Below, piece after piece: positions 4,811-31,680 of a DNA stretch of 32,000 nt. The position numbers and the translations under genes are program-made. The number at the start of each line of letters is the position of its first letter. The stretch's first letter is position 1. The notes under the pieces were generated by a model. It worked only from the letters and a program-made list of their open reading frames with translations. It was not told where the DNA came from and ran no database searches. The stretch is taken from positions 1 through 32,000 of the forward strand of contig CAZPUN010000018.1 in the NCBI GenBank assembly GCA_964589775.1, written 5' to 3'. Source of the stretch: an uncultured archaeon (lineage in GTDB: Archaea; Asgardarchaeota; Thorarchaeia; Thorarchaeales; CAZPUN01).

Positions 4811-4920
4811 TCGAACTCACCCGTATCACTTTTATAATACAATAAAATTTATCCTATTAAACCATTATGTAAATGTAAGAAATAAAAATATCTATCTCAA
4901 TACTACAGGTGGATAAAATT

Positions 4921-8185: not shown

Positions 8186-9691
8186 ATGAGAATTTGTGAT
8201 ATACTACCAGAAGGTCTCAGAGAAGAAATAGAAAAAGCTGCAGAGATCATTAAAGGTTCAGAACACGTTCTGATTGTATCACATATTGATACTGATGGGA
8301 TTACATCACTTGCAATTCTTATCAGAGCATTGGAACGCGCATTAATAAACCCCACGTGGATGAATCTAAAACAATTAAATGCACAGACCTTGAATCAAGT
8401 TCTTGACATATTATCGCGTAATAATTATGATACATTAATTTTCTCGGATATGGGTACCGGACAGATTATAGAGGTTCTAAGAGCTTTAAAACCAGGAATG
8501 ATCAATAATCTAATAGTCATAGACCATCATTTGGCACCTCACAATATCTCACTTTCTAGAGAATATGCAGATAGCTTGAATATTACACTAACACACGTTA
8601 ATCCACTACTTTTCGGCTTGAATGGTAGTAAAGATGTATCAAGTTCAGGTATTGCATTTTTAGTAGCAATTTGTTTGAATGAAAACAATTACGATCTTGC
8701 AGATCTTGCAATTATTGGCGCAACTGGCGATATGCAATATTACTACGGCAAGGGATATACTGGAATAAATGGCGAAATAATCAAATTAGGCGAAGAAATG
8801 GGAATATTAAGGCTCGAAAAAGATCTTACATTCTATGGCAGAGAAACACGAATCTTACCTATTCTTTTAGAATACGCTACAGATCCATTTCTACCAGGAC
8901 TTACAGGAAACCGTGATGAATGTATTAATTTTCTAAATTATGTTGGAATTGAATTAAAAGATGGAGAGAAATGGCGTACGTGGAGAGATCTTGAATCAGA
9001 AGAAAAAGCTGCCCTGATAGAAGCAATAATCGAACATTTAATTACAAATAGTAATGAGCAAAATATCCAAATCATTGGAGATTGTGTATCACTATTAAAT
9101 TGGCCTGAAGGAACTGAATTACATGACGCAAAGGAATTCTCGACCTTGCTAAATGCATGTGGTAGAAATGGAAAACCAGAAATCGGTGTAAAAATTTGTC
9201 TCAGGGATAGCGAAGCATACCAAAAGGGTTTGTATTTATTACAAACACACAGAGCGAACCTTGCAGCCGCATTGTCAAAAATACAAGAAAAAGGCGTCGA
9301 AGACCGTGGAAACTTCTACATTTTTGAAGATAATGAGATTTCAGAAACTATAATTGGTATTGTTATTGGTATGGCAATCGGTTCGCGGCTTATACCAATC
9401 GATAAGCCTGTTTTTGGAATTACACGAAGTAAAGAAGAATCAAAAAACCTAGCAAAAATATCTGGCAGACTTGGAAAAAACTTGCTATCAAAGGGTATCA
9501 ATTTGAAAGAAGCTCTACAATATGCACAAAATGAACTGAATTCAGAAGTGGGAAGAGTTGTTGCAGAATCCGGAGGACATCCCATGGCGGCGGGAGCTTT
9601 TGTGGAATTTGAATTCTTAGACGACTTTTTAGCATTTTTAGATCTAGCAATAGCAGAACAAATAGCAAAAAAGAAAAAGAGTAAAAGATGA
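8186..9691 (+). CDS. DHH/DHHA1 RecJ-like nuclease, GAN/Cdc45 type
   Basis: SHIDTDG, FSDMGTG, IDHH, HVNP..FG.NG..DVSSSG, GATGDMQ, DAKEFSTLLNACGR, SGGHPMAAG. Confidence 0.88.
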   Translation: MRICDILPEGLREEIEKAAEIIKGSEHVLIVSHIDTDGITSLAILIRALERALINPTWMNLKQLNAQTLNQVLDILSRNNYDTLIFSDMGTGQIIEVLRALKPGMINNLIVIDHHLAPHNISLSREYADSLNITLTHVNPLLFGLNGSKDVSSSGIAFLVAICLNENNYDLADLAIIGATGDMQYYYGKGYTGINGEIIKLGEEMGILRLEKDLTFYGRETRILPILLEYATDPFLPGLTGNRDECINFLNYVGIELKDGEKWRTWRDLESEEKAALIEAIIEHLITNSNEQNIQIIGDCVSLLNWPEGTELHDAKEFSTLLNACGRNGKPEIGVKICLRDSEAYQKGLYLLQTHRANLAAALSKIQEKGVEDRGNFYIFEDNEISETIIGIVIGMAIGSRLIPIDKPVFGITRSKEESKNLAKISGRLGKNLLSKGINLKEALQYAQNELNSEVGRVVAESGGHPMAAGAFVEFEFLDDFLAFLDLAIAEQIAKKKKSKR

Positions 9692-14916: not shown

Positions 14917-15336
14917 TTGTTACAAATGAAAAGAATCGAGAAATTATTAGATGTGGTTTTAAAAGCGCGAATAAAGATTCAAAAAGCAATCGAAATTACA
15001 AAACACGAAGAAACAATATACGATCTAAAGGGACTCGATAACCATTTGGGATTACTAGAGCGAGTTCTAGGGGAATTTAGTGAAAATGTAAAACACGCAA
15101 GAAATGCCAATGATATTTTAAATGATCCTGCATATACAACTAGAATGGCAGCATGGACCGATGGGCTAATGATTCGAATTGAAGATTATTTGAAAAAATT
15201 AAGGAAATTCAGATATGAAATTGCCCATAAATACTGGGATGCTACCATTGATTATGTGGATACAATCATTAAAAATGTAGATAGGTGGAAAAAAGGAATT
15301 AATCTCATAGGCGACTTACCGGATATTCCCAGTTAA
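14917..15336 (+). CDS. Hypothetical all-helical protein
   Basis: 139 aa of amphipathic helices; likely start ATG 14926; stop overlaps the convergent aRF1 stop (TTAA). Confidence 0.7.
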   Translation: MLQMKRIEKLLDVVLKARIKIQKAIEITKHEETIYDLKGLDNHLGLLERVLGEFSENVKHARNANDILNDPAYTTRMAAWTDGLMIRIEDYLKKLRKFRYEIAHKYWDATIDYVDTIIKNVDRWKKGINLIGDLPDIPS

Positions 15337-16421
15337 TATCGAAGCAATGCAGCAACGCCACCCATAGCTTCCAGTTGCGCTCCAGATTCGGTCTGGGAAC
15401 TGAAGATTACAACATCTGTTCCATATTGTTCTGCAATGTCGATTATTTTGTCGATTAAGTCAGTTTTTTTCTCAGAGATCAGAATAGTATCTACACGACC
15501 TTGTTGCAGCATATCTAAAACTTCTTTCTCACCATAGGTTACGTTTGAATGACCTTTCATAAGGTTTTCAATAAATCGTTCCCAGAGTTGTCGCTCTTTA
15601 TATACTTCAGTTTCTTTTGCAATTCGAGAAATTTCTTTAACAATTTGTAATAGACCCGTTTCATCGACTGTAGATACAGATATAATTTTATCTACAACCT
15701 TTTGTTTGAGACGATAATCAAGCTCACCTTTTTCGAGAAATTCCATAACACGTATTGTATTACCACCAAATACAATGGCATCAATATTATCAAGTTGAGG
15801 TAACAATAGCTCATTCAGGTATTTTCCAAGATGCCTAAAGAAGTTAAGCATTTTTTCTTCACGAATACGTTCAAAACGCCGAGAAGACTGACCACCAGCT
15901 CTAAACTTACCCATAATATAGAAATCTTCCTCTTTTACAAGTTCTATGTGCTTGCCTCTTAAATAACCAACAACATACTTACCACCTTCAATGAGAACTG
16001 TCACAATAAAGTGCCGCGGAGTAAGCATCTGCTCCAATTCATCAGTCTTAAATTCAGAACCACAAATATAAATGAAATTTTTGAGTGGTTCAGGCGGAAT
16101 AATAGCTTCTCGGATCTCGATATTGTTTTGCTCCCCCATAATGCCATAGAAGAAAACAATACCATTTTCAGGAATGTGACCTAATTTTGTCAAATCGGAT
16201 ATAATCGCATTTAAATTATCTGCTACATTTTTTCTATTTGTTTTAGACTTGATGTTATCAGTTCCAGCATATTCCTGCTTCAGAAAGTTTAGAACATCAA
16301 CGATATTTTTACTCGGAGGAATGTATAGAGTGGTAAATCCACTATGTCGACCTTGTAATGATTTTAGATATTCGATCTTTTTTCTTAGTTTCTCTTTCGT
16401 AATAGTTGGGGAAGCAGACAT
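15333..16421 (-). CDS. prf1: Archaeal peptide chain release factor 1 (aRF1/eRF1), compact form
   Basis: LYIPP, NIKS, YICGSEF (YxCxxxF), AGGQSSRRFERIRE, YGEKEV, GGVAALLRY. GGQ and NIKS exclude Pelota. Confidence 0.93.
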   Translation of the reverse strand: MSASPTITKEKLRKKIEYLKSLQGRHSGFTTLYIPPSKNIVDVLNFLKQEYAGTDNIKSKTNRKNVADNLNAIISDLTKLGHIPENGIVFFYGIMGEQNNIEIREAIIPPEPLKNFIYICGSEFKTDELEQMLTPRHFIVTVLIEGGKYVVGYLRGKHIELVKEEDFYIMGKFRAGGQSSRRFERIREEKMLNFFRHLGKYLNELLLPQLDNIDAIVFGGNTIRVMEFLEKGELDYRLKQKVVDKIISVSTVDETGLLQIVKEISRIAKETEVYKERQLWERFIENLMKGHSNVTYGEKEVLDMLQQGRVDTILISEKKTDLIDKIIDIAEQYGTDVVIFSSQTESGAQLEAMGGVAALLRY

Positions 16422-16573: not shown

Positions 16574-18415
16574 TTGACAGAAATTTCCGATATTTTAAGG
16601 TCAATTCCAGAAAAGCCTGGAATATATATAATGAAAGATATTGATGGAAATATATTGTATATTGGAAAAGCAAAAATATTGAAACGCCGTGTTTCATCGT
16701 ATTTTCATAAAACACATAATAATGAACGCATTAAGAAAATGGTCTCAAAAATTGCAAATATAGAAGTAATTGTAACAAACACAGAAATAGAAGCATTAAT
16801 GCTTGAAAGTACCCTGATTAAAAAGCATAAGCCGCCTTACAATGTTGCATTAAAAGACGATTCGCGATATGTATACGCGAAGATCCATATGGAGGACGAA
16901 TATCCATGGATTGAAATCACTCGTGATTTCAAACGTGATGGCGCACCATATTTTGGACCATATTCAAGTTCACGATGGCTTGAAAAATACATAGATACTC
17001 TAAGAAAAATGTTTCCAGTCCGCACATGCAATTATGACCTCAGGAAAATAAAGCGAGCCTGTATTGATTACCAATTAAAAAGATGCCTTGCACCATGTGT
17101 GTATGAAGTCGATAAAGAGGAATATCAAAACATTGTAAAACAAATGATGACTTTCCTTGAAGGCAGAGGAAAAGACTTGATTGATATTTTAGAAAAACAG
17201 ATGGTTGAGTCCGCAAGCAATCTGAATTTTGAGCGCGCTGCCATATTAAGAGATCGTCTAAAAGCAATAAGAAAATCAATACAAAAGCAAAAGGTCGTAT
17301 CATTAACGCCTGATAATAAAGATATCATTGCACTTGCTAGAACTGAAAATATTAGTTTGGTTCAAGTGCTCTTTATACGTGATGGAAAACTGATAGGGCA
17401 GTCATATTTCGTATTAAATCAAGGGATTGAAGAAGAGAAAAGTGAAATACTTGCAAAGTTCATATTACAATATTATCATGAACGACCGAATCTTCCTGAG
17501 AAAATAATAGTTCAAGAGAAAATAAAAGAACGTGAAATCTATGAAAAAATCCTCTCACAGTTGGAGAATAAACCGGTAAAAATCATAGATGTACCTAACG
17601 ATATTGATCGAGAACTCTTAGCAATGTGTGAAATGAATGCGCGGACAAATCTTGGAAGAATTTTACTAATTGACAAATCAGATGAGATTATTCTTGCAGA
17701 TTCCGTTATAGATCTTCAAAAGCGTATAGGATTATCAAAACCACCAATTATCATAGAAGGATTTGACATTTCAAATATTCAAGGCACTAACCCAACAGCT
17801 TCAATGGTCAGATTCTACAATGGAACTCCGGATAAAAACAATTATAGAAAGTTCAAAATTAAAATAAAATCCACGCCCGACGATTTCGCCATGATGTATG
17901 AAGTAGTATATAGAAGATACAAATCCGTAATTGAAAAGGGACTTCCATTACCAGACCTAATTTTAATTGATGGCGGAAAAGGCCAAGTAAATGCAGCCAT
18001 GAAAGCTTTAAAGGACCTAGGACTTGATTATCTTTCAGTAATTGGGATAGCAAAAAGATTTGACCACTTAATTCCTGCATGGACACTTGAAGAAATTGAA
18101 CTACCGCCAGAATCGCTTGGACTTCGATTGCTCCAATTCGTAAGGGATGAAGCACACAGATTTGCAGTATCATACCACAGAAAGCTCAGACAAAAACAAC
18201 TTGAACATTCGATCTTGGATGAAATAAAAGGAGTGGGTGAAAAAACTCGAAAACGCCTACTGAAAAAATTCGGAACAATAAAAGAAATCGGAAAGGCACC
18301 AGTTGAGGAAATCGCATCTGTACCCGGAGTCAATCTTGAACTTGCGTATAGAATAAAGAAATATATAGAACAAAAAATCGATTTAGAAAGTTCAAAATCC
18401 TTTTTAGAAAGGTAA
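16574..18415 (+). CDS. uvrC: Excinuclease ABC subunit C
   Basis: GIY-YIG (PGIYIM...LYIGKAK..RV.SYF), Cys cluster C/C/CLAPC, UVR NFERAAILRD, FDISN, DDFAMM, PDLILIDGGKGQ, RDEAHRFA, C-terminal HhH. Confidence 0.96.
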   Translation: MTEISDILRSIPEKPGIYIMKDIDGNILYIGKAKILKRRVSSYFHKTHNNERIKKMVSKIANIEVIVTNTEIEALMLESTLIKKHKPPYNVALKDDSRYVYAKIHMEDEYPWIEITRDFKRDGAPYFGPYSSSRWLEKYIDTLRKMFPVRTCNYDLRKIKRACIDYQLKRCLAPCVYEVDKEEYQNIVKQMMTFLEGRGKDLIDILEKQMVESASNLNFERAAILRDRLKAIRKSIQKQKVVSLTPDNKDIIALARTENISLVQVLFIRDGKLIGQSYFVLNQGIEEEKSEILAKFILQYYHERPNLPEKIIVQEKIKEREIYEKILSQLENKPVKIIDVPNDIDRELLAMCEMNARTNLGRILLIDKSDEIILADSVIDLQKRIGLSKPPIIIEGFDISNIQGTNPTASMVRFYNGTPDKNNYRKFKIKIKSTPDDFAMMYEVVYRRYKSVIEKGLPLPDLILIDGGKGQVNAAMKALKDLGLDYLSVIGIAKRFDHLIPAWTLEEIELPPESLGLRLLQFVRDEAHRFAVSYHRKLRQKQLEHSILDEIKGVGEKTRKRLLKKFGTIKEIGKAPVEEIASVPGVNLELAYRIKKYIEQKIDLESSKSFLER

Positions 18416-19962: not shown

Positions 19963-20397
19963 ATGAACGAAGAACTTTCTGATAGAGATGTTGAATATAT
20001 ACTTGCTATATATCAAATCGAAAAAGAGACCGACTGCGCAGTTGGGCCTAAAGCTATATCAGAAAGACTGAAAGTTTCAAGACCTACTGCTTTAGAGATG
20101 TTAAAACGTCTTGAACAGAGAAAAATAGTAAAATATTATCATAAAAAGGGGGCAAAACTCACCAGATATGGAAAGGACTTAGCATTACGAATAATAAGAA
20201 GACAGCGAATATTAGAGACTTTACTATATAATGAGTATAACTTATCTCAAGAGGAGATTCTTGAACATGCAGTAGCCTTGAGAAGTAAAATCAGCGACAA
20301 ATTGATTGATGTATTCTGTGGTCATATGGGCCATCCAAAATTTTGTCCTCATGGAGAGCCTATACCTCAAGGAAAAAATTGCTGTGTTAGGAGGTAG
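19963..20397 (+). CDS. DtxR/MntR-family transcriptional regulator (no FeoA domain)
   Basis: EYILAIY, HTH ISERLKVSRPTALEMLKRL, LTRYG, RRQRILE, CPHGEPIP. Confidence 0.9.
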   Translation: MNEELSDRDVEYILAIYQIEKETDCAVGPKAISERLKVSRPTALEMLKRLEQRKIVKYYHKKGAKLTRYGKDLALRIIRRQRILETLLYNEYNLSQEEILEHAVALRSKISDKLIDVFCGHMGHPKFCPHGEPIPQGKNCCVRR

Positions 20398-21423
20398 ATG
20401 AAAATGAATAGAAAAATTATTCCTGTGTTAATGTTAATGATTTTTATGCCTGCATTGATCGTACCTGTAAATGCACAAGGAACACCATTAAATATTGTTG
20501 CGACAAGCCAATCATTAGCTTCAATAGTTATGGAAATTACGGGAACACGTGACAATGTTACTTATATTTTGCCAGAAGGAACAGATGCTCACAGTTATTC
20601 CTTGACAATGCAAGACATACAAAAATTACAACAAGCAGATTTAGTAATAGTCGCAGATAGTGAAGATCTTTCATTAGAAGCGCAAATGTTAGAAAATACC
20701 GAAGGTATACCTCATCTCGATTTTATAAACTATACATCATACGGTGCGGAATTAATTTCAGTTCCAGGATTTGATAGAAATTACCATGGTTATTGGTTAG
20801 GAATTAAGAATGCACGAGCAATTGGAAGAGCTGTTTTTGATGCAGTAAAGACATTAGATCCTACAGCTATAACTTATTACCAATCACAACTTAATAATTT
20901 TGAAGACAGATTAACAAAATTAAGTAATATGTTAAATGATACTGCAAGTAAATATCAACTAACAGGTAAAAAAGCAGTCGCTGCCGTCCCAGGAGTTGCA
21001 TACGTATTAAATGATCTTGGCATAAAAACCGGAGTCTTACTCTTAAAAGGTCCAGGACAATTTGTAAGCACACAAGAGATTGCGGAGATTGAAGAAGGCG
21101 TTAAGAATGGGACATATTCAATAATTGCATGTGCAGAAGCTCTTGAACAAGCAAAAGCGGGAGATATATCTGAACAAATTTCGAGAGATACTGGAATTCC
21201 AGTAGCATATCTACGTATCTTTTCATTTGGAGATTTAGAAGACTATTTTGCACTTGAAACATACAATACAGCAACTGTTGTATCCATTTTTAGAATTGCT
21301 CAAAATAATGTGGAACAATCTGGCAATTTATTATATTATTATATGATAATAGGAATTCTAGGGATTACCACCTTTATTGAGTTAATTATAATTCTCAATT
21401 ATAGGAGGGAGGAAATAGATTGA
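20398..21423 (+). CDS. Zn/Mn ABC transporter substrate-binding protein (ZnuA/TroA family)
   Basis: Signal peptide (PVNA-Q), NIVAT, LPEGTDAHSY, ADLVI, HGYWL, C-terminal TM anchor. Confidence 0.85.
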   Translation: MKMNRKIIPVLMLMIFMPALIVPVNAQGTPLNIVATSQSLASIVMEITGTRDNVTYILPEGTDAHSYSLTMQDIQKLQQADLVIVADSEDLSLEAQMLENTEGIPHLDFINYTSYGAELISVPGFDRNYHGYWLGIKNARAIGRAVFDAVKTLDPTAITYYQSQLNNFEDRLTKLSNMLNDTASKYQLTGKKAVAAVPGVAYVLNDLGIKTGVLLLKGPGQFVSTQEIAEIEEGVKNGTYSIIACAEALEQAKAGDISEQISRDTGIPVAYLRIFSFGDLEDYFALETYNTATVVSIFRIAQNNVEQSGNLLYYYMIIGILGITTFIELIIILNYRREEID

Positions 21424-22202
21424 GCGAATTTTTAATTGAAACACATAATTTATCCGCAGGATATGAAGAAGAACCAGTTATTAAAGAAATAGATATAAAG
21501 GTCAAACATCCATCATTTTTAGCCATTATTGGTCCAAATGGGGCGGGTAAGAGTACTCTCATGAAAACTATGATTGGCCTTACAAAGGTTTTTGATGGCA
21601 CAATTAGAGTATTAGGATATGATCCCACAAAGGAACCGGATAAAATACGAAAATTAATAGGATATGTTCCGCAACGAGATAAAATTTCAACAAATATGCC
21701 GATTCGTGTAAAGGATGTTGTTTTGTTAGGCAGACTTGCAAGAAAAGGTTTTCTATCCTTAGCATCTAAGAAGGATATCAAAAAAGTCAAAGAATCTTTG
21801 GAGAAAGTAAATCTACTTCATCTCTACAACAAGCGATTTTCTACTCTTTCAATAGGTCAACAACAAAGGGTGCTAATTGCACGAGCCCTTGCACTTTCAC
21901 CGAAGGTTTTACTATTAGATGAACCGTTATCCGCAGTAGATGCACCTACTCAAAAAACTATCATAGACTTATTACACAATTTAGTTAAAGAAGGAATTTC
22001 AGTTGTAATGGTAACTCATGACATTAATCCATTAAGTGAATGCACGGATAGGATCATTCTGCTAAATAAAAAGATGTATGCATTTGGAACTATTACAGAT
22101 GTGTTAAATGAAGAAGTAATGGAAGCTGCCTATGGAGTTCCTGTACCAATTATCGTCAAGAAAGATAGATGCTACGCAATAATAGGTGATGCCCATGCTT
22201 GA
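21420..22202 (+). CDS. Zn/Mn ABC transporter ATPase (ZnuC family)
   Basis: GPNGAGKST, YVPQ, LSIGQQQR, LLLDEP, VTHD. Confidence 0.92.
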   Translation: MSEFLIETHNLSAGYEEEPVIKEIDIKVKHPSFLAIIGPNGAGKSTLMKTMIGLTKVFDGTIRVLGYDPTKEPDKIRKLIGYVPQRDKISTNMPIRVKDVVLLGRLARKGFLSLASKKDIKKVKESLEKVNLLHLYNKRFSTLSIGQQQRVLIARALALSPKVLLLDEPLSAVDAPTQKTIIDLLHNLVKEGISVVMVTHDINPLSECTDRIILLNKKMYAFGTITDVLNEEVMEAAYGVPVPIIVKKDRCYAIIGDAHA

Positions 22203-23013
22203 TATACTAACAAATCCATTTATAATCCGAGCAATTATCGCAATTATTCTGATAGCTGTAGTATCAAGTACGATGGGGAGCTTTACAGTATTTAGAGGAC
22301 AGACATTCATGACTGCAGGAGTTTCACATGCTGCACTTGCGGGAGCTTCGTTTGGTATCTTAATCCAGATGTACTACATACCGGATTTTGACCCAATGAT
22401 CGGTGCAGCTATATTTGCTATTCTAATGGCACTTGCAACAGCATACGCAAGCAAGCATGGAGATCCCAGAAAGACAGACGTAATGATAGGTGTGTCGTTT
22501 GGTATCGCAATGGGTCTCGCAGTATTACTGATATCTGCAATAAAAGAATATGCAGTTAGAGCATGGGGTCTACTTATGGGAGATCTTCTATTATTAACAG
22601 AAAAGGATATCCTACTATTGTTCATAACAACGGTTATCGTAGCATTTGCCACAGTAATACTATATACAAAATTCGTTCTTGTTTCGTTTGACCCAGAAGG
22701 AGCAGAAGCACATGGTATCAGGACAAATCTGTACAACAACATATTACTAATCTTAGTTGCACTTTCAATAATTGTGGTCTTAAAAGGAGTTGGAGCGCTA
22801 TTAGTATATGCACTTATGATAGGTCCGGGCGCAACAGCAAATGAAATTTTCAATTCAGTAATGTCAGTAATGATTGCTGCATTCCTAATAGCACTAATTG
22901 GAGGTATTTTGGGACTTATAATATCGTTCTATGTTCCAGTTTCACCAGGGGCAATAGCTGGAATCTTAACAACCGTAATATACTTCTTTGTAATTCCATT
23001 TTCGAAAAAATAA
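22195..23013 (+). CDS. Zn/Mn ABC transporter permease (ZnuB, ABC-3 family)
   Basis: GVSHAALAG, LMGDLL, SFDPEGAEAHG, VGALLV.AL; multiple TM segments. Start 22186-22195. Confidence 0.92.
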   Translation: MLDILTNPFIIRAIIAIILIAVVSSTMGSFTVFRGQTFMTAGVSHAALAGASFGILIQMYYIPDFDPMIGAAIFAILMALATAYASKHGDPRKTDVMIGVSFGIAMGLAVLLISAIKEYAVRAWGLLMGDLLLLTEKDILLLFITTVIVAFATVILYTKFVLVSFDPEGAEAHGIRTNLYNNILLILVALSIIVVLKGVGALLVYALMIGPGATANEIFNSVMSVMIAAFLIALIGGILGLIISFYVPVSPGAIAGILTTVIYFFVIPFSKK

Positions 23014-23031
23014 AGGAGAAAAAATCTCCTT
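23013..23031. terminator. Putative bidirectional terminator hairpin
   Basis: AAGGAGA-AAAAA-TCTCCTT with T-rich tracts following on both strands, between convergent stops. Confidence 0.6.
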
Positions 23032-24163
23032 ATTTTCTTTTTGAAAAATCAGAAATATCATACCCAAGAGCTTCAAGCCATTGACGCGTGTGTCCGAAAA
23101 TGAGTACAGGCTCATTTTTCAAGTCTGCAATAGTCTTATTTCCAGTTAAATACATAGCAACACGAAGCTCTTCCATAAATTGCTTGATTAACTGTTCAAC
23201 AGCTTTTAATCCACCATTTAAAGCCGCATTCAAGAAGGGAAGTGCTACACCAACATAATCTGCACCTAATGCAATGGCTTTAGCAGCATCCAAACCGCTA
23301 CGAATACCACCAGTTCCAATTATTTTTAGTTTATCTCCACCACATTTACGAGTTTCAATTATACTTACTGAAGTCGGAATCCCCCAATCCCAGAATGTCT
23401 CGCCAACTTTTGCTTTTAGTGAATCTTCATTACGCGAGCGATAAACCTCAACGCCAGACCAGCTGGTACCACCAGCACCACCAACGTCTATTCCGGCAAT
23501 TTTTGCTTTTACAAGAGCTGACGCAACTTTACAGGATATACCCGCACCGGTTTCTTTTGCAATGACCGGAATATTTACTTTCTTTACAAGATTCTCAATA
23601 GCAGCAAGCATACCTCTTGAATCTACATCACCTTCAGGCTGTACAGCTTCTTGTAATGGATTTAAATGAACAGCCAGAACATTTGCATCGATCATTTCTA
23701 TTGCTTTATTCGCAAAGTGAATGTGTGTAGCACCAATGTTACCAATGATAGGAATGTCTGGAGCAACATTTCGAACGACCTTAAAAGAATCCTGCACATC
23801 AGGATTTTCCACTCCAGCTCTTTGACTGCCTACACCCATCGGTATATTATATTTCTGTGCAGCTTTCGCTAAAATTTCATTGATTTTTGTCGTTTCAGGA
23901 TGACCACCAGTCATACCGGCAATAATAATAGGTGCAGAAACAGGATAGCCAAAAAATTCAGTTTCAAGTAGGATCGCATTCTTGTTTATTTCCGGCAAAG
24001 AATTATGTATAAATTCAATATCTGAAAATCCTGGAGATTTCTTAATAGCTTCAACATTTTCTTTTGCAGAAATTATTAAATGTTCGATTTTTCTCCGTGT
24101 GGTATCAGATTTATTGTTCTCAAGGTCATGCAATAATGATTTAGATGCATCAGTACCAGCCAT
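23030..24163 (-). CDS. fni: Type 2 isopentenyl-diphosphate delta-isomerase
   Basis: RKIEH, MTGG, GSQR, NIG, HLNPLQEAVQPEGD, KETGAG, GAGGTSW, WGIPT, GGIRSG. Confidence 0.96.
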   Translation of the reverse strand: MAGTDASKSLLHDLENNKSDTTRRKIEHLIISAKENVEAIKKSPGFSDIEFIHNSLPEINKNAILLETEFFGYPVSAPIIIAGMTGGHPETTKINEILAKAAQKYNIPMGVGSQRAGVENPDVQDSFKVVRNVAPDIPIIGNIGATHIHFANKAIEMIDANVLAVHLNPLQEAVQPEGDVDSRGMLAAIENLVKKVNIPVIAKETGAGISCKVASALVKAKIAGIDVGGAGGTSWSGVEVYRSRNEDSLKAKVGETFWDWGIPTSVSIIETRKCGGDKLKIIGTGGIRSGLDAAKAIALGADYVGVALPFLNAALNGGLKAVEQLIKQFMEELRVAMYLTGNKTIADLKNEPVLIFGHTRQWLEALGYDISDFSKRK

Positions 24164-24230
24164 AGTATATCAACTCGATTAAGAAAGTTAATTTAATTCG
24201 AGATTACAAAATAAAAAATAGAAAATAAAT

Positions 24231-25289
24231 TTATGGTTTCATCTGTGCCAATAAAGTTCGTAATCGGGGCTCTGCAAGCATAGCATTTTCAATCTGACAG
24301 ATCAGCTTTGTAGTAAGACCTTCAATAACACGGTCAACCTCGTCAGTCTTCTTGTCTTCTGCTTTCTTCAGATGCGATTCTGCCTTTTTCTGTAGCATCT
24401 TTAAAATTCGTTTTTCAAGGTCGGGTCCACCCCAATCAAAGCTTAGAAATTCACGGCGACTCTCTGAAATTATAGATTCAAGATTATATTTTGCATCATT
24501 AAGTAAAACAGATGCACTTTCAAAATATTTTGAAACAGCGCGCCTAACACGTTCCTCTTCAGTTGCACTTAGATATTTCTCTTCAGGACGTTTATGCTTT
24601 AATTCAATAAGTAAGCGCGCCCCAGGTGCTTCTGATAATAAAGATTTTACTATGGACATGATTGCCAAAGTTGGAATCTCAATAATTTTATCCATAAGCT
24701 CTGTTCGTGCAGTATATCGGTGTAGTTCTTTTATTGCTTCGCTCCAGAATAACGGAATTATTATGTGTGCCCTACGGGAATAATCATCAATCATTCGTTC
24801 GATATTAGCAACGTAACCGAATCGATCATTAATGTCTTTGGTGCGTTTAAACTCATCTTTTTCGGGCTCGGGAGGTGTTGTGGGAATTAAATCTAATAAA
24901 CCACTCTGAGGCGGATTAGATTGACCGGGAATAGGACCTGTAGGCACAGGAGCACTGCCTTCTATCATTCCTGTAGAAGTTGGTGTTGGCTTTGAAATTG
25001 GGTGTACCTTTGAAAGATTGACCAAGTCTGGTAATAATTGCTCAATTTGAGAGATTCGCTTTACAATTAATGAAAGAATATTTACTGTTGAGGATTTTAA
25101 TGATGAATTCAAAGACATTTCTTCCATCCAGGATCTAGCTCTTGCAAGGCCTTGCCTGAGGCTGTCTACTTTATCGGGATCTACTTCCTGACTCAGTTGG
25201 ATGTTGATTAAGAACTGAATTAGTGTGGCATTTAATGTTGAAACCATTAGCATTTTGTCAATTAGGTCCTCAACAGGATACTCACTCAT
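24231..25289 (-). CDS. Hypothetical two-domain helical protein with Pro-rich linker; third gene of the tubulin-like operon
   Basis: 352 aa; 8-bp overlap (ATGAGTGA) with the tubulin-like gene; SD AAGGAGTG; 13 Pro in residues 97-142. Confidence 0.85.
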   Translation of the reverse strand: MSEYPVEDLIDKMLMVSTLNATLIQFLINIQLSQEVDPDKVDSLRQGLARARSWMEEMSLNSSLKSSTVNILSLIVKRISQIEQLLPDLVNLSKVHPISKPTPTSTGMIEGSAPVPTGPIPGQSNPPQSGLLDLIPTTPPEPEKDEFKRTKDINDRFGYVANIERMIDDYSRRAHIIIPLFWSEAIKELHRYTARTELMDKIIEIPTLAIMSIVKSLLSEAPGARLLIELKHKRPEEKYLSATEEERVRRAVSKYFESASVLLNDAKYNLESIISESRREFLSFDWGGPDLEKRILKMLQKKAESHLKKAEDKKTDEVDRVIEGLTTKLICQIENAMLAEPRLRTLLAQMKP

Positions 25290-26679
25290 TTAGAGGCACT
25301 CCTTCTGTTTCAGCCATATAATAGCTAAACAATTCCTTTACGTCATTTATTGCATCCACAAGTTCTTTTCTGGGAACACCCTTGGAACGCATAAACCACG
25401 ATTGCTTCAATAAGGAAGGACCACTATGCAAATTAACTAACTGAGTTGCTTCATTTATAAGATGCGTCAATTCAGGAATCTTGGGTAGACCAAGAAGTGC
25501 CATAAATGTAGTAGGATGCTCCTCATCCTGATACTGAACATAACAAGGTGTTATTGCTGCACCCGGAGAAAGATATGGCTTCAACGCATCCTTAATATAA
25601 GGACCATATTCCGCACGAGCAACGTTCTTGTGTCCGGAGAATACGTAGAATACACTCTCAGCACTAGGATTATCACCAACATCAGCATAAGAACATTCTT
25701 TAATTGTGTAATCGACCATCGTAGAAATTTGCTTTGGCATACTACCTGCATCAGGAATAAGCCCTACATCATCATACAGTGCAGGAACCACAACAGGATC
25801 TAACCTACGCGAATAATCTGCAAGATCGGTATTCGGAAAGACATCTTTTCCGGGCTCATAAATTCCTGGGTTTAACATATGATCTACTGCTTTAAGAGCC
25901 AATGGGTTTACCAACTCGACGAAAGCTTGCTCCGTACGAAGATCCATTTCAGATTGTGAATCAATTGTAGACGGAACCATCTTTTCAACTTGAGAAACAT
26001 CTGCAATGTCTACATTCAATTCACGATGTAGAAATTCAATTGTTTCTCCACTTCGCCATGCAAGAACACGTTTTAGCATAGTTCGGTTACTTAACAGGAC
26101 CAATAGATCTGCGCCTCTATCTTGCAATTGGGCTCGCAGTAATTTTGAGATCGCCCAAATAGAGTTTAATGCTTCGCTGGATTGCCCCTCAAACGGCAAA
26201 ACGCCCATCACATAAACGAAAATCCTACGGTGTTCTTCTTCTTGAAAGCGTTGTTTCAATAATTCAATAAGAGCAGGAGTACCACCACAACCAGTACCAC
26301 CGCCCAGTGATGTGAAGATTACAAATCCAGATACACCTTCGAACCCTAGAGATCTTAATTGGTCTAAAATAATGTCCTTTGAATCAAGTACATATTGGTA
26401 ACCGTCCATGAAACGGCCACCGACACCTATATCACTGGAACCATATAGTAATGTATTTTCCTTTGGGATGCCATATTTCTTTCGAACTTTCAACAAGTCA
26501 GACCTATCAGTGTTAATTAACAGATACCCTCTAATTCGTTTGGGAAGGGATTTCTCTCTTGCCTGTGCAAGATACGAACCTACTAAGTTTGAACCGGCTT
26601 CTCCAATTCCAATAGCAAAAACTTCTGCAGTCCTACTTAATTCATCGTCAGCTCGTTCTTTTCCAAATAAATGTGACAT
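25282..26679 (-). CDS. Divergent tubulin/FtsZ-superfamily GTPase with tubulin-like C-terminal helices
   Basis: T1 GIGEAG, T2 INTDRSDL, T3 GVGG, T4 SLGGGTGCG, LPF.G...EALNS, LLSN, H7 AF...VN, T7 NTDLAD, C-terminal WF...GV...EL.DA...V.EL.S.Y. Confidence 0.9.
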   Translation of the reverse strand: MSHLFGKERADDELSRTAEVFAIGIGEAGSNLVGSYLAQAREKSLPKRIRGYLLINTDRSDLLKVRKKYGIPKENTLLYGSSDIGVGGRFMDGYQYVLDSKDIILDQLRSLGFEGVSGFVIFTSLGGGTGCGGTPALIELLKQRFQEEEHRRIFVYVMGVLPFEGQSSEALNSIWAISKLLRAQLQDRGADLLVLLSNRTMLKRVLAWRSGETIEFLHRELNVDIADVSQVEKMVPSTIDSQSEMDLRTEQAFVELVNPLALKAVDHMLNPGIYEPGKDVFPNTDLADYSRRLDPVVVPALYDDVGLIPDAGSMPKQISTMVDYTIKECSYADVGDNPSAESVFYVFSGHKNVARAEYGPYIKDALKPYLSPGAAITPCYVQYQDEEHPTTFMALLGLPKIPELTHLINEATQLVNLHSGPSLLKQSWFMRSKGVPRKELVDAINDVKELFSYYMAETEGVPLNE

Positions 26680-26698
26680 TGCATCTATCCCTCAAAGT

Positions 26699-29392
26699 TT
26701 ATTTTCCTTCAATCATAGCTAGTGCAATTTCTTGCAAAGCCCAACTAAGATATGTTGATATATCTTTACGCGAGAATGTTTCTTTTATGCGTTTCTTCGC
26801 ATCTTCAATATACTTATCGCGTTCAGCTGGTGGAGCTCTGGGATTAAATCCACTTAGGTACATACGAAGTGTTTTATGCCAGTCATCAATCTCATCTAGT
26901 TTTCGGCGCCAACGCTCTCGAAGAGCTTGAATTTCTTCATAAGTACCTAGTAATTCAGATAACATACGAGCTTTCAAAAGATTTTCTTCTGCTTGCTCTA
27001 ACTGATTAAGTGGAAAGATTATTTCACTGAAATCGGATTTGTGCTTAGAATACACTCGTTGAACAGTACTGTAATAAGTAGTAGCAGCACGCAATTGCGC
27101 CTCGTAATCTTCTTTTTCCTTTTGATGTATATCTTTCAAGATCTTAAGCATCTCGTCTTGAATATTCGCAAGAGTTAAACATGTATCGAGCAATGGTTTA
27201 ATGCTTCGAGATTTCATTTCTAGCTGCGAAGGTACTTGATCAAGTAATCCTTTTAATTTTGCAATAATGTCAGGATCTACTTTATTACCCATGAGATCTA
27301 CCGCTTTTGTAAGTTGCGCCCATGAATCACGAGCCTTGTTTACGATTTTCTGCCTTAGTTCTGGAGCGGAGGTTATATTGGATAGTTCATCAAAAGCTGT
27401 TGCTGCAGCCTCAACATCAGAATATGACTTTGCACGAATTTCTTCGATCTTTTTAAGCTCCTCTTTTACATCAACACCAATTAATTCAGCCTTTTGTAGC
27501 AAATTAATTATATTGCCCATTTCAGAGTCCAGAATCGAGATAACAGAGCCTGCAATGTTCTTCTCATAGAGTTCGATCATCTTACGGGCAATCTTAGGTG
27601 CTTCAGACATTGAATTTATCGTAATGCCTAGATTACTAAGTTCATTGACAGCCTCAAGCATTTTCTCTGGAATCTCTAGACCCGCATTTAACAATCGGGT
27701 GTTAGCCAAACGAACTTTAACTGTAAGGCGATACCTAAGATTTTCCAATGCATCCTGAGCTTTTACGATTCCAGATTCTTTAACAGTTTTAAGATGATTT
27801 CGAATGGATTGGAAACTATTAAGCGTATCTAGAACATGTAATCCAGTATCCAAATGTGAAATTACAGGAACAAAGATATCCGCATATGCAGGCTTAATTG
27901 TCTGAAAGCCTTCTATCAAAGACATCAATTCTTGCTTTGAAGCATCTTTGAAATTATCAAGTCCTGAATTCACAGCGGCAATTAGATTCTTGAGTGAGGC
28001 AATAAGATAAACTAATGAAACATCTTGTTTGTCTATTTTCGGAATCTTTTTCATAAGTGTAGAAGTATCTAATACACCTTGTGCAGATGCCAATAATTCA
28101 TTTAGCTTTTCAGTGTAATTCTTAATTTCATTCATTACTATTTTTCGAATGTTTTCTAAGAAATCAGTACCACGAAGGTAAAATTTGACAAGCTCTGAAA
28201 TATTTGCTTTCTCAATTTTTTCTTCTACATTATCGACAAATTCTTTTACTTCATTAATATTGGGATATTCAATTAAGTCTTGGTTCTTTATGGCAGCATT
28301 TAGCTCGCTAATTATTGTAGATACTTTTTCTTTCAGAGCAATTCTAACACTAGATTGCCATTCAAGCATCTTTTGATAACCCATAAGCACAATATTTGGA
28401 TCATCAGTCTGAAGATTTTCTTGTGGTGGAGGTGGAATAACTTCGGATGTAGTCGGAATTCCGCCTTCTGCAATTAGGGAGGTTGTTTCATGCTTGATGT
28501 TGATAATTCGGTCTTGAATTAATCTAATTAACTTGGACTTTGCACTCTCATATTGCTGTTCTAATGAAAGCAATGTTGTAAGATTACTAGTCTTAGAAGC
28601 ATCACGTGCAATTAATCGTAAGGATTGTATGAAATCAATTGGAAGTTCAATTCCAAGGCGTGAAGCGGTCTCAGCTGATGCCTGAAGTGATTCTACATTA
28701 ATAATAATATTACCAGAAAGTGCTTTTCCTACTTCACCCTTTCGACCATCAAGGTATTTCTGCTCCACCAGAAGAGTTTCACGCATATCCAGTAAATCCT
28801 CAAGGCGGGTTTCAGCAATAGTCTCACGTGATGATGTAATTGGTACTTCTCCACGATCTATCTTTATGTGTCGATCATATGTATCCAATGTTCTCTTATT
28901 TTCATCAAGTAGAACCTTGAGATCCTTAATCAAACTCGAGATTAATTGCGAATAAATTTTTTCAAACGCAAATGCAAATTCATGTACAAGTTTCAAATCA
29001 TTATCATCAATACATGCGACATCTGGAAATGCAAGAGATTCCAATTGTCTTGCATATTGTGCATTGAACTCTCTAATTCGAGGTAATAGATCTCGAACTT
29101 CACGGTAACGTCTCTTTAAACGGTCATGGGCTAAACGTAATGTTTCGTAAAAGTCTGTTTCAAAATCGCCAGACATTTTATTTAGGCTTTCTTCTAATTT
29201 TTTCTTCTTTAAGAAATTAAGACCTGATGTTGATTTTATTTCGCGCTCAAGTTTGTCCAGCTTACTATATATAGTATAAAGGTTGCGCATCGCAGTTTCA
29301 ACTGCTTCGTTACCATCAGGATTTACAGTGTTCAGAGCACTCCTTATCTCAGAAAGTGTATCAATATTCTTTCGGTATCTTCGTAATTCCAA
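26699..29392 (-). CDS. Large all-helical repeat (rod-like) protein; first gene of the tubulin-like operon
   Basis: About 897 aa from TTG 29392 (SD-like AGGCGGG; ORF track start 29497). No Walker motif or TM segment; helix-cap motif recurring every 61-80 aa. Confidence 0.85.
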   Translation of the reverse strand: MELRRYRKNIDTLSEIRSALNTVNPDGNEAVETAMRNLYTIYSKLDKLEREIKSTSGLNFLKKKKLEESLNKMSGDFETDFYETLRLAHDRLKRRYREVRDLLPRIREFNAQYARQLESLAFPDVACIDDNDLKLVHEFAFAFEKIYSQLISSLIKDLKVLLDENKRTLDTYDRHIKIDRGEVPITSSRETIAETRLEDLLDMRETLLVEQKYLDGRKGEVGKALSGNIIINVESLQASAETASRLGIELPIDFIQSLRLIARDASKTSNLTTLLSLEQQYESAKSKLIRLIQDRIINIKHETTSLIAEGGIPTTSEVIPPPPQENLQTDDPNIVLMGYQKMLEWQSSVRIALKEKVSTIISELNAAIKNQDLIEYPNINEVKEFVDNVEEKIEKANISELVKFYLRGTDFLENIRKIVMNEIKNYTEKLNELLASAQGVLDTSTLMKKIPKIDKQDVSLVYLIASLKNLIAAVNSGLDNFKDASKQELMSLIEGFQTIKPAYADIFVPVISHLDTGLHVLDTLNSFQSIRNHLKTVKESGIVKAQDALENLRYRLTVKVRLANTRLLNAGLEIPEKMLEAVNELSNLGITINSMSEAPKIARKMIELYEKNIAGSVISILDSEMGNIINLLQKAELIGVDVKEELKKIEEIRAKSYSDVEAAATAFDELSNITSAPELRQKIVNKARDSWAQLTKAVDLMGNKVDPDIIAKLKGLLDQVPSQLEMKSRSIKPLLDTCLTLANIQDEMLKILKDIHQKEKEDYEAQLRAATTYYSTVQRVYSKHKSDFSEIIFPLNQLEQAEENLLKARMLSELLGTYEEIQALRERWRRKLDEIDDWHKTLRMYLSGFNPRAPPAERDKYIEDAKKRIKETFSRKDISTYLSWALQEIALAMIEGK

Positions 29393-29629
29393 CGCATTTA
29401 CCCGCCTTTCTTTTTTTTGACCTTTAGAACCTTTATTGAAATTAACATATTTAACTCTTTCAGATTTTAAGCACGCACTATTAAAGTATAGATTCATACT
29501 TCCATATAGGTATAACGTTTTTATTTCAATTAATCCGAAAGTACTAATAAATTAAACTATCAACATTGCTGTGCATCAATAATTTTTTATGGATAATTAT
29601 GTGCATTAACATAAAATTAGCTCAGGTCG

Positions 29630-30697
29630 TTGAAAACAAAAATGATTAGAAAACCAAAAGATAGAGATTTTATTCAAACACAAGAAGATCTCTTTTTCTG
29701 TATTGTTGATTATATTCATCCAGAGAATTATTATACAGCATATCTAAAATATATACCCTCAGATAAAGGGAAATGGCAATTTGGAGATACTCATTATTGG
29801 AGAGTATTGAATTTTTATCATGTATTTAATGTTGAAAAAACATTTGAATTTCTGAAAGAAAGATTTCCACATTATATCAGACATGATAAGTTCAGACATA
29901 TCGAAATGTCTATGGTTCCAAAGGAGAAAATAAAACAGTATTTTATCCCTGAAAACCGCTTTGCAACTATTGTAAATTCTCCAAAAAATAGATTAGAAAA
30001 AGACGCCATAGAAATCGCGGACAAAATCGCAAATGATGCAGGACTTGAGCTTAAGAATTTCGGAATTACAGGGTCTATTTTAATTGGGCTTGCAAATGAA
30101 AAGTTTTCAGATGTGGATCTTACAGTATATGGATTAAAGGAATCCCACAAAGTAAAACATGCATTAATAGAAATTAAGAATAAAAAGGATACAATTTATA
30201 AAATGCCCAGAGAACGCCAAGAAAAATGGATCATGGATAAACAAAAACAATTTGGCATACCTTATTCGCTATCAAAATATCTGTTAGATATGAAATGGAA
30301 TTATGGAATATTACAAAATAGGCGATACTTCTCAATTCATCCAATACGAAAAGATAATGAAATAAATGAAAAGTACGGCGAAAAGGAATATATTGATCTT
30401 GGATATATAAAAATCAAGGCGACTATCGTTGATGATAGCGAGGCAGTATTCTTACCAGCTATTTATAAAATAGAAAATGTTGAGATAATAGAAGGACCCA
30501 AAGTTGATAATCTTGTTAAAATAGTTTCATATGAAGGACTTTTTGGTGACATAACTACAAAAGATATGAAAATTATAGCCGCTGGAAAATTGGAGAAAGT
30601 AATTTGCAAAAATAAGACATATTACCGCGTAGTCTTGGGTGCAGGAGGCTTGAAAAAACCACAGTACATGGGACCTATGGAGTTGATTAATGCATGA
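29630..30697 (+). CDS. Pol-beta-superfamily nucleotidyltransferase, uncharacterised archaeal family (COG1665-like), copy 1
   Basis: FGITGSILIG...SDVDLTVYG; N-terminal DFI...HP...LKYIP; beta-rich C-terminal domain (FLPAIY...GKLE). Start TTG 29630 or ATG 29642. Confidence 0.8.
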   Translation: MKTKMIRKPKDRDFIQTQEDLFFCIVDYIHPENYYTAYLKYIPSDKGKWQFGDTHYWRVLNFYHVFNVEKTFEFLKERFPHYIRHDKFRHIEMSMVPKEKIKQYFIPENRFATIVNSPKNRLEKDAIEIADKIANDAGLELKNFGITGSILIGLANEKFSDVDLTVYGLKESHKVKHALIEIKNKKDTIYKMPRERQEKWIMDKQKQFGIPYSLSKYLLDMKWNYGILQNRRYFSIHPIRKDNEINEKYGEKEYIDLGYIKIKATIVDDSEAVFLPAIYKIENVEIIEGPKVDNLVKIVSYEGLFGDITTKDMKIIAAGKLEKVICKNKTYYRVVLGAGGLKKPQYMGPMELINA

Positions 30698-31680
30698 AGA
30701 AACGAAAGCCAATAGACGGCGATGCAATTCTCACAAATGATGGGTTTTTATTTTACACATTTGGATATGAGCATCCAAAAGGTCGATATTATGGATTCCT
30801 AAAATATATTCCAATAGATTATCAAAAATTATTCAATATTGAATGGTTACCCACAAAATGGATTCTTAATGGGCATACTGTAGTTAGACCGGCTGAGCTA
30901 TATAGTCCTAGATCATATAGAGAAATATTAAACACGTTAAAAGGACATTTCCAGAAATATATTTGGTTTAATGATGATTTAAAAAAAGAAATGATTACGG
31001 TTCCTGAAAATGAAATTGAAAAAATTTATCGTCCTAATGAATCACTCATGAAATTGTATAACAAAAAAGAAAAAGACAAGTTAGAAATAGCAGCAATACA
31101 AATAATTGAATTACTTGCAGAACATTCAGGGGTTTCAATATCAAATTTTGGAATCCATGGTTCAATAAGCTTAGGGTCACATGACCCGGATAGAAGCGAT
31201 GTAGACATTTCAGTATATGGGGCTTTAAACTTCAGGCAAGTTTTAGATTCAATGAAAGCACTTGAAAAGAACAAAATTATACAGATAAGTAGAAGAAATG
31301 ATATAGAGCGAATTAAACAAAATACCGCATTTTATAAAAACACACGGTTTGTAGTAAATGCTACTAGACTACCAGAAGAAATTCCCAGATATGATAGAAC
31401 ACACTATGCAATCGGAATTATTTCTGCAGTTTGTAAAGTTATAGATGATATGGAATCAGTTTTTAGACCAGCCATATATAATGTAAAATGCGAAAATCAA
31501 ACAATTAATGTTCCAATTAAAAATGTTGTAAGCAATATAGGAATGCATAGATTCCTAGCAAAGAAAAATGATAAAATTAGGGTTAAAGGAATATTGGAAA
31601 AAATACATGAAAATAATAAAAAATACTATGAAATAGTAATAGGAACAGGAGCTCCAGATGAATTCTTTAAAGTGCTGTGA
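30694..31680 (+). CDS. Pol-beta-superfamily nucleotidyltransferase (COG1665-like), copy 2
   Basis: FGIHGSISLG...SDVDISVYG; HP...LKYIP; FRPAIY...GILE; ATGA overlap with copy 1. Confidence 0.8.
   Translation: MKKRKPIDGDAILTNDGFLFYTFGYEHPKGRYYGFLKYIPIDYQKLFNIEWLPTKWILNGHTVVRPAELYSPRSYREILNTLKGHFQKYIWFNDDLKKEMITVPENEIEKIYRPNESLMKLYNKKEKDKLEIAAIQIIELLAEHSGVSISNFGIHGSISLGSHDPDRSDVDISVYGALNFRQVLDSMKALEKNKIIQISRRNDIERIKQNTAFYKNTRFVVNATRLPEEIPRYDRTHYAIGIISAVCKVIDDMESVFRPAIYNVKCENQTINVPIKNVVSNIGMHRFLAKKNDKIRVKGILEKIHENNKKYYEIVIGTGAPDEFFKVL

Follow-up and report, generated by a model that had tools for sequence, protein, structure and literature searches.

The nearest described relatives of the system considered here are the 'CetZ-like' Asgard tubulin paralogues that Santana-Molina, del Saz-Navarro & Devos named Asg.Tub (2023, Front Microbiol, PMC9871819). 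In that study the position of Asg.Tub in the tree, between CetZ and tubulins, was unstable; the group was treated as sparse, with lateral transfer raised as a possibility, and its genome context was described as unknown genes, mostly with coiled-coil regions, with partner families left undefined. Four members are given in the supplement (KXH77455.1, OLS30664.1, OLS26264.1 and PWI48967.1). We have analyzed a 32,000-nucleotide stretch of DNA from an uncultured archaeon of the order Thorarchaeales (contig CAZPUN010000018.1 of assembly GCA_964589775.1, positions 1 to 32,000 of the forward strand; 'the window' below), in which a three-gene operon at 24231-29392 encodes an Asg.Tub GTPase (gene B) between two helical proteins (genes A and C). 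The host genome, 2.16 Mb and 96.75% complete, falls in the same GTDB order as Thorarchaeota genomes, in agreement with the probable Asgard origin proposed in an earlier reading of the letters that used no database searches (the sequence-only reading). Among the sequencing runs listed, the one that contains the locus in full is a hydrothermal-vent metagenome, probably its source, and none of those with the locus is an RNA run.

Relative to the published description of Asg.Tub, what we find is a gene carried by about 38% of the sampled Asgard genomes, with a distribution that follows taxonomy, and locked to two partner families in a fixed order. In the searchable literature we found no account of these partner families, of how strictly they are linked to Asg.Tub in the different Asgard classes, or of a conservation of Asg.Tub at the level of FtsZ. 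We found no paper in that literature that purifies, images or names partners for Asg.Tub, and none that gives accessions of family members in its main text; the 2026 papers on Asgard microtubules deal with eukaryote-type AtubA/B and include CetZ as an outgroup only. We consider it probable that the locus is the Thorarchaeales copy of an ancient, vertically inherited Asgard module in which B is a filament-forming GTPase and A and C are its dedicated partners.

Organization of the A-B-C operon

The three genes lie on the minus strand in the order A-B-C, with Shine-Dalgarno (SD)-like elements, read from the sequence, ahead of each. Lengths are in amino acids (aa).

26699..29392, minus strand: gene A, 897 aa, 102 kDa, TTG start
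25282..26679, minus strand: gene B, 465 aa, ATG start; Asg.Tub tubulin/FtsZ-superfamily GTPase
24231..25289, minus strand: gene C, 352 aa, ATG start
29401..29407, minus strand: SD-like AGGCGGG, 8 nucleotides upstream of the gene A TTG
26688..26693, minus strand: SD-like GAGGGA in the A-B spacer, 8 nucleotides before the gene B ATG
25299..25305, minus strand: SD-like GAAGGAG within the 3' end of gene B, 9 nucleotides before the gene C ATG
24206..24230, minus strand: T-rich tract read from the sequence, immediately past the gene C stop

Genes A and B are separated by 19 bp (26680-26698), and the stop of B overlaps the start of C by 8 bp (ATGAGTGA, 25282-25289). The sequence-only reading had described the locus in just these terms, as three co-oriented genes with a 19-bp gap, an 8-bp overlap, SD-like elements and unrelated flanks, and it was accurate in every checkable detail. 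It also placed the start of gene A at 29392. The maximal open reading frame (ORF) runs from 26699 to 29497, so that this TTG sits 35 codons inside it; it is nevertheless almost certainly the true start, since over 100 homologues have lengths of 895-898 aa, their N-terminal consensus matches from the TTG onward, and AGGCGGG lies 8 nucleotides upstream. The T-rich tract may be an archaeal terminator of the oligo-T kind, with which the operon would end. A scan with promoter and terminator models of bacterial type, which are not applicable to archaea, gave no excess over shuffled sequences. All three products are soluble and mildly acidic, and hydropathy predicts no membrane span in any of them. 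PADLOC gave no match at the locus, and PHROGs gave only weak, sub-threshold matches, for gene A.

Gene B is a CetZ-like GTPase of the Asg.Tub family

Gene B matches the Pfam Tubulin family PF00091 over residues 19-203 with 65.7 bits (cut-off 33, E 8.7e-18), which bears out its earlier description as a tubulin-superfamily GTPase. It has the motifs T1 (GIGEAGSN), T4 (GGGTGCG) and T7-like (TDLAD). In an alignment of 34 family members from all lineages, residues G24, G26, E27, G29 and N31 of T1, the whole of T4 (G126-G132) and the acids D285 and D288 of the T7-like segment, which hhalign places on the T7 region of CetZ, are invariant. The top PDB matches are three CetZ structures, for the single sequence and the 34-member profile alike (profile values 4B46 1e-13, 3ZID 6e-9 and 4B45 4e-8, with scores of at most 54 bits). 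Beta and gamma tubulins, OdinTubulin, BtubA and AtubA rank after them at 1e-6 to 1e-5, and FtsZ structures follow at about 1e-4. All of these PDB-profile matches lie within the N-terminal domain only, and those to eukaryote-type tubulins, which span E 7e-7 to 1e-4 in all, are confined to residues about 71-200. Compared directly by hhalign with a CetZ profile, itself verified as CetZ by its match to 4B46 at 1e-131, the B family aligns at a probability of 99.96% (E 3.5e-39) over residues 19-419 and 342 columns, a span which indicates, by profile alignment and not from a three-dimensional model, that both domains of the tubulin/FtsZ fold are present. Features specific to the family, relative to CetZ, are an insertion of ~45 aa (about 205-250) and a conserved C-terminal extension (420-455). 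We found no full-length similarity to eukaryote-type tubulins (alpha/beta/gamma, OdinTubulin, AtubA/B and BtubA/B). Judged by these comparisons, gene B encodes a GTPase with the whole tubulin/FtsZ fold, its GTP-binding and T7 loops intact; the family nearest to it is archaeal CetZ, to which it is closer than to the eukaryote-type tubulins.

The assignment to Asg.Tub follows from OLS26264.1 (homologue P0115 in our set), which has 51-52% identity to gene B and is placed within the family clade of a quick tree, with Shimodaira-Hasegawa-like approximate likelihood-ratio (SH-aLRT) support of 96-100. Because this protein is both a defining Asg.Tub member and a gene B homologue, gene B is an Asg.Tub; the Thorarchaeales members quoted in the published supplement have the same motifs. 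Of the new cytoskeletal system suggested in the sequence-only reading, the dedicated, conserved three-gene module is borne out, but the GTPase family was already in print under this name.

Homologues of B are 50-75% identical across Thor-, Hermod-, Hod-/Heimdall- and Asgard-archaeia proteins, and identity stays above 50% from Thor to Heimdall. When orthologues are compared, B exceeds FtsZ both toward a Thorarchaeote (73% vs 66%) and toward a Heimdallarchaeote (58% vs 51%). On these identities Asg.Tub is at least as conserved as FtsZ, and B is under strong purifying selection. When 1.84 billion cluster representatives were searched exhaustively with a profile, full-length matches came from just two 50%-identity clusters (697 and 638 bits); past these came one relative at 170 bits and then CetZ/FtsZ-like proteins below about 86 bits, so that by profile score the Asg.Tub family is tight and isolated by a large gap.

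The lone distant relative, P0328 (L070:6001-7374, plus strand, on a Logan contig), is 29% identical to Asg.Tub over its full length. Gene A is absent upstream of it, where dihydroorotate dehydrogenase and SMC-ScpA genes are found instead, and the 262-aa gene that overlaps it (L070:7361-8149, plus strand) has a weak match to the WGGPDLEKR region of gene C (hhalign probability 15%).

Whether B polymerizes at all is a point on which the invariant T7 acids bear. A non-polymerizing role has been suggested for divergent tubulin relatives such as Misato, and B might likewise work as a GTPase-based switch or in the manner of a chaperone, A and C being its clients or effectors. The insertion at about 205-250 and the C-terminal extension would suit such a role, and polymerization of B is a prediction. 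However, D285 and D288 are inter-subunit residues whose invariance is relevant only if subunits stack head-to-tail, and both fold domains are kept, so that we regard a non-polymerizing B as very improbable. Arguing from the enzymology of FtsZ and tubulin, invariance of these acids is what would be expected of a homopolymeric filament former that hydrolyzes GTP only when stacked.

Co-occurrence, gene order and inheritance of the three genes

We searched whole genomes for each gene in the same 251 Asgard genomes. Gene B is present in 96/251, gene C in 96/251 (as a single copy) and gene A in 98/251, and all matches fall in the same eight GTDB families, of which the window's own is the eighth. Counts for the others are as follows.

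Family f2: B in 54/60 genomes, C in 53/60, A in 54/60
Family f12: B in 15/19, C in 16/19, A in 16/19
Family f22: B in 15/16, C in 15/16, A in 16/16
Family f16: B in 5/5, C in 5/5, A in 5/5
Family f15: B in 4/4, C in 4/4, A in 4/4
Family f6: B in 1/1, C in 1/1, A in 1/1
Family f8: B in 1/1, C in 1/1, A in 1/1

The families that carry the module belong to the Thorarchaeota, Hermodarchaeota, Sif-/Borrarchaeota and Heimdallarchaeota. In the remaining Asgard families, including ones sampled with 54, 26 and 10 genomes, A, B and C have no match, and their presence or absence coincides genome by genome save in four fragmented assemblies.

Gene order was surveyed at 24 loci, taken from the eight GTDB families and from public Heimdall contigs. 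The GTPase is directly preceded by a gene A homologue in 24/24, one of them a truncated ORF, and directly followed by a gene C homologue in 20/24, in the order A-B-C with a spacing of few bases. The NCBI locus tags of the homologues are consecutive in independent metagenome-assembled genomes. Of 5-14 flanking ORFs, loci from different families have just 0-2 in common, and since the flanks differ in this way the triad is not carried along by general synteny. The sequence-only reading had proposed neighborhood conservation across Asgard genomes as a check on its claims, and the locus passed it strongly, with one phyletic pattern and one gene order over eight families amid changing flanks. The existence of a dedicated three-gene module A-B-C is well supported.

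It could still be asked whether the linkage is a historical accident, a synteny among relatives without shared function. All surveyed genomes come from one phylum, and their relatedness inflates the counts. Against this, order, orientation and few-base spacing are held across the eight families while the flanks are almost wholly different, the three genes come and go together in the genomes surveyed, and the duplicated Heimdallarchaeota copy has a gene A of its own. An accidental linkage is in our judgment extremely improbable.

The quick tree of B (midpoint root, indicative only) follows taxonomic groups, with the window protein as sister to the Thorarchaeota clade and a second paralogue within the Heimdall/Hod group, and identity ranks across lineages run parallel for A, B and C. 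The tree and the parallel ranks argue for an old, vertically inherited and co-evolving module, and not for a sparse, possibly laterally transferred gene.

The second Heimdall A-tubulin pair is followed by a convergent gene for a conserved 740-aa protein with an N-terminal small GTPase domain of the Gtr1/RagA-Arf type (minus strand, at L001:8377-10596 and L049:7374-9596, and also on L050 and L051). This protein might replace C in the second pair, or it might reflect mere synteny within the family.

Predicted structures of the partner proteins

Both partners had been described from the letters as soluble, helical and unassignable, and so they proved: neither reaches a Pfam or NCBIfam cut-off, neither has a hydrophobic membrane stretch, and their models are all-helical. 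The two proteins have no homology to each other, and both families are well populated and confined to Asgard archaea.

Gene A homologues share about 40% identity within the Thorarchaeota. The AlphaFold2 model of the protein is all-helical, with 33 helices among which lengths of 38-44 residues recur, and has a mean predicted local distance difference test score (pLDDT) of 86.7 and a predicted template modeling score (pTM) of 0.38, so that its local structure can be trusted while its overall shape cannot. When profiles of segments cut at the long helices were compared by hhalign, the segment 197-331 matched 332-459 in full register (probability 83%, E 9e-6), 460-596 (78%) and 597-731 (55%). With moderate confidence, these comparisons suggest that gene A consists of 3-4 copies of a module of ~130 aa. 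Heimdall versions are ~250 aa longer, and BLAST places one stretch of the query on two successive stretches of the subject; the extra length and the double alignment fit extra modules, two modules' worth. The 'rod-like repeat protein' of the sequence-only reading is therefore borne out in its helical and repetitive character, but not in its overall shape; that reading had put the repeat at about 66 aa, whereas the period seen here is ~130 aa.

On one Heimdallarchaeota chromosome the gene A ORF encodes 659 aa (L044:3989-5968, plus strand) and covers the C-terminal two thirds of the family only (hhalign probability 100%), the N-terminal part being missing or disrupted.

A Foldseek search with the whole 897-aa model of gene A, in which single domains could be missed, gave a best E of 0.016 (dynein heavy chain, template modeling score (TM) 0.14), and a feature search of the ESM Atlas returned only the protein's own Thorarchaeota cluster. 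One chain of the gamma-tubulin ring complex, and no other, appears in the same Foldseek list, at E 0.67 and TM 0.07, and there is no GCP match in Pfam. Identities of gene A as a GCP/GRIP, EzrA, TPR, HEAT or tubulin-cofactor protein found no support in Pfam or in whole-model fold searches.

The model of gene C (pLDDT 83.4) consists of a three-helix bundle (6-95), a disordered Pro-rich linker (99-136) and a helical domain (145-352, pLDDT >90). The family alignment contains the invariant motifs EAPGARLL, WGGPDLEKR and a terminal MKP, which are sited in the C-terminal domain. Foldseek with the whole model against PDB gave a best E of 0.28, the shape search of the Atlas reached a TM of at most 0.31, and its feature search and own model gave nothing usable. 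The predicted folds of A and C thus have no specific match in whole-model searches, and we make no claim that they are new. A complex prediction for B with full-length C, both entered as alignments, gave interface (ipSAE) scores of 0.01 and 0.00 and, made without controls, counts neither way.

Segregation and division as alternative roles

Prokaryotic tubulin-family operons that include an adaptor gene, such as TubZ-TubR-TubY, are typically partition systems, and the bipartite, adaptor-like build of the C model invites the same reading. In a machine of the TubZRC or PhuZ kind the filament would move DNA, C would be the centromere adaptor and A a TubY-like modulator; the SMC-ScpA genes beside the distant relative P0328 would also fit. 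The locus itself argues otherwise. It is chromosomal, occurs in at most two copies per genome and tracks taxonomic groups, it has no association with mobile elements or with phage or defence families in PHROGs and PADLOC, and Pfam shows no helix-turn-helix and no DNA-binding domain of another kind in A or C. The close PDB matches of B do not include TubZ, and no repeat array was noted beside the locus, although no dedicated search for centromere repeats was made. We give segregation of DNA or plasmids little credence.

A tubulin-family protein accompanied by helical-bundle regulators also recalls FtsZ with EzrA and Zap proteins, and Asg.Tub could be a third FtsZ-like ring protein, with A as an EzrA- or ZapB-like regulator and C as a SepF- or ZipA-like tether. 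The host's single FtsZ-type gene besides Asg.Tub speaks for this, since most of the five other Asgard genomes checked have two; against it, all five of those have FtsZ in addition to Asg.Tub, three of them two genes and two of them one. Moreover, B stands closer to CetZ, a protein of cell shape rather than of division, than to FtsZ; hydropathy finds no membrane-binding segment in A or C; Pfam gives no EzrA, SepF or ZapA signal; and large Asgard families that have FtsZ lack the module entirely. An accessory role in division is therefore unlikely.

A model for the Asg.Tub module

We return to the reading of the locus as a module of a filament-forming GTPase and two dedicated partners. In this model B would bind GTP and most likely assemble head-to-tail into homopolymeric protofilaments, in which, as in FtsZ and CetZ, the T7 acids D285 and D288 of each subunit would activate GTP hydrolysis in its neighbor. 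A and C would be co-transcribed and translationally coupled, and kept or lost, with B. Gene A, a predicted ~100-kDa chain of helical bundles whose module number appears to vary between lineages, would most likely lie along filaments and bundle or space them as a scaffold or ruler. Gene C, with two folded ends on a flexible Pro-rich tether, would most likely link the filament, or A, to another cellular structure. Similar roles, a cross-linker or scaffold and an adaptor, had been proposed from the letters by analogy with tubulin and its microtubule-associated proteins, and may apply here. The evidence that suggests a partnership is genomic: translational coupling, co-occurrence, fixed order and the co-duplication of A with B. 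As to function, the proximity of B to CetZ and the separate gene for FtsZ lead us, by analogy, to favor a role in cell shape or internal organization over one in division.

Several observations weigh against this model. Four of the 24 loci are the second Heimdall A-B paralogous pairs, which have no adjacent C, and in the Thorarchaeota genome G037 the GTPase (C69:11277-12614) and gene C (20860-21918) lie about 8 kb apart, with C downstream, which suggests an insertion into the operon between them; from these cases it follows that gene C is not obligatorily adjacent. Neither A nor C has family or fold relatives in Pfam, NCBIfam or whole-model fold searches that would link it to filaments, and what points to direct binding of either protein to B is solely the conserved gene linkage. 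The repeat signal of gene A is moderate (probabilities of 55-83%), helical proteins can give spurious hhalign matches, and a pTM of 0.38 does not establish a rod.

The module has implications at several levels. Asg.Tub adds to the tubulin superfamily a further branch, with FtsZ-like conservation, in Heimdall/Hodarchaeales as well as Thor-, Hermod- and Sif/Borr-archaea, and A and C are two new protein families whose sole known context is a tubulin-like GTPase. With its two family-specific partner genes, what had been a detail of phylogeny becomes a defined set of three proteins that could be reconstituted. Should A and C bind Asg.Tub, a CetZ-like protein would for the first time have known dedicated partners, and the pre-eukaryotic origin of filament-associated proteins would have a case on which it could be tested.

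A bolder proposal, which we put forward only tentatively and hold to be doubtful at present, is that Asg.Tub, A and C make up a third Asgard cytoskeleton, independent of FtsZ and of microtubule-type systems, with A as filament-associated scaffold and C as tethering adaptor, in effect a prokaryotic system of a filament and its associated proteins. The ancestor shared by Thor-, Hermod-, Sif/Borr- and Heimdall/Hod-archaea would already have possessed such a system, which would shape cells, protrusions or internal organization. If so, A and C would found two new families of proteins that bind members of the tubulin family, and the system would have been at work in the lineage that gave rise to eukaryotes.

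Genes flanking the operon

The genes that flank the operon are unrelated to it, with an FMN (flavin mononucleotide)-dependent dehydrogenase and a DtxR-znuABC cluster downstream and two divergent nucleotidyltransferase genes upstream. At lower coordinates, between 4909 and 18415, the window holds information-processing genes.

4909-7674: family-B DNA polymerase
8186-9691: DHH/RecJ-like protein
15333-16421, minus strand: Pelota/eRF1-like gene
16574-18415: UvrC
19963-23013, plus strand: DtxR-type metal repressor, then ZnuA-like binding protein, ATP-binding cassette (ABC) ATPase and ABC-3 permease, a compact metal-uptake operon
23030-24163, minus strand: FMN-dependent dehydrogenase-family gene (like type-2 isopentenyl diphosphate isomerase), with its own start, directly downstream of gene C
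29630-31680, plus strand: two tandem paralogues (355 and 328 aa), divergent from the operon, each with a weak match to the Pfam nucleotidyltransferase family NTP_transf_2

The FMN-dependent dehydrogenase is the sole flank gene common to the window and another family; in two Thorarchaeota loci (L036 and L037) a homologue lies less than 6 kb from the triad, in a different position.

Comparison with known tubulin-family systems

The locus differs from systems of the TubZRC type in its chromosomal, taxonomy-tracking position and in having no DNA-binding domain of Pfam or NCBIfam in A or C. The likeness to FtsZ with EzrA and Zap proteins is an analogy of working only, that of a tubulin-family filament together with long proteins of repeated helical bundles. 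EzrA and gene A have no match in Pfam or in whole-model fold searches, hydropathy shows no membrane anchor in gene A, and FtsZ is encoded elsewhere in the genome.

BtubA/BtubB-BtubC and AtubA/AtubB are likewise tubulin-superfamily genes in a tight operon, and the Btub operon includes a helical-repeat partner that binds the filament. In contrast to that partner, gene A has no match to Pfam TPR families. The Btub and Atub proteins are paired eukaryote-type tubulins, whereas B is a single CetZ-like gene that matches them weakly and over part of its length. Atub loci have no conserved neighbors beyond the pair (PMC13394414).

By sequence and by profile the nearest characterized family to B is CetZ (PDB 4B46, 4B45 and 3ZID), the profile similarity extending over the GTPase domain as well as the C-terminal one. 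The gene neighborhoods of CetZ, with pili and cofactor genes, differ from those of Asg.Tub (PMC9856176). The two proteins share about 20% identity; the T1 motif of B reads GIGE(C/A)GSN where CetZ has a G-G-Q-x-G-G pattern, B has in addition its insertion and a conserved C-terminal extension of ~45 aa, and in the quick tree Asg.Tub forms a long-stemmed clade of its own. What B and CetZ have in common is a T7 loop of the single-gene, homopolymer type.

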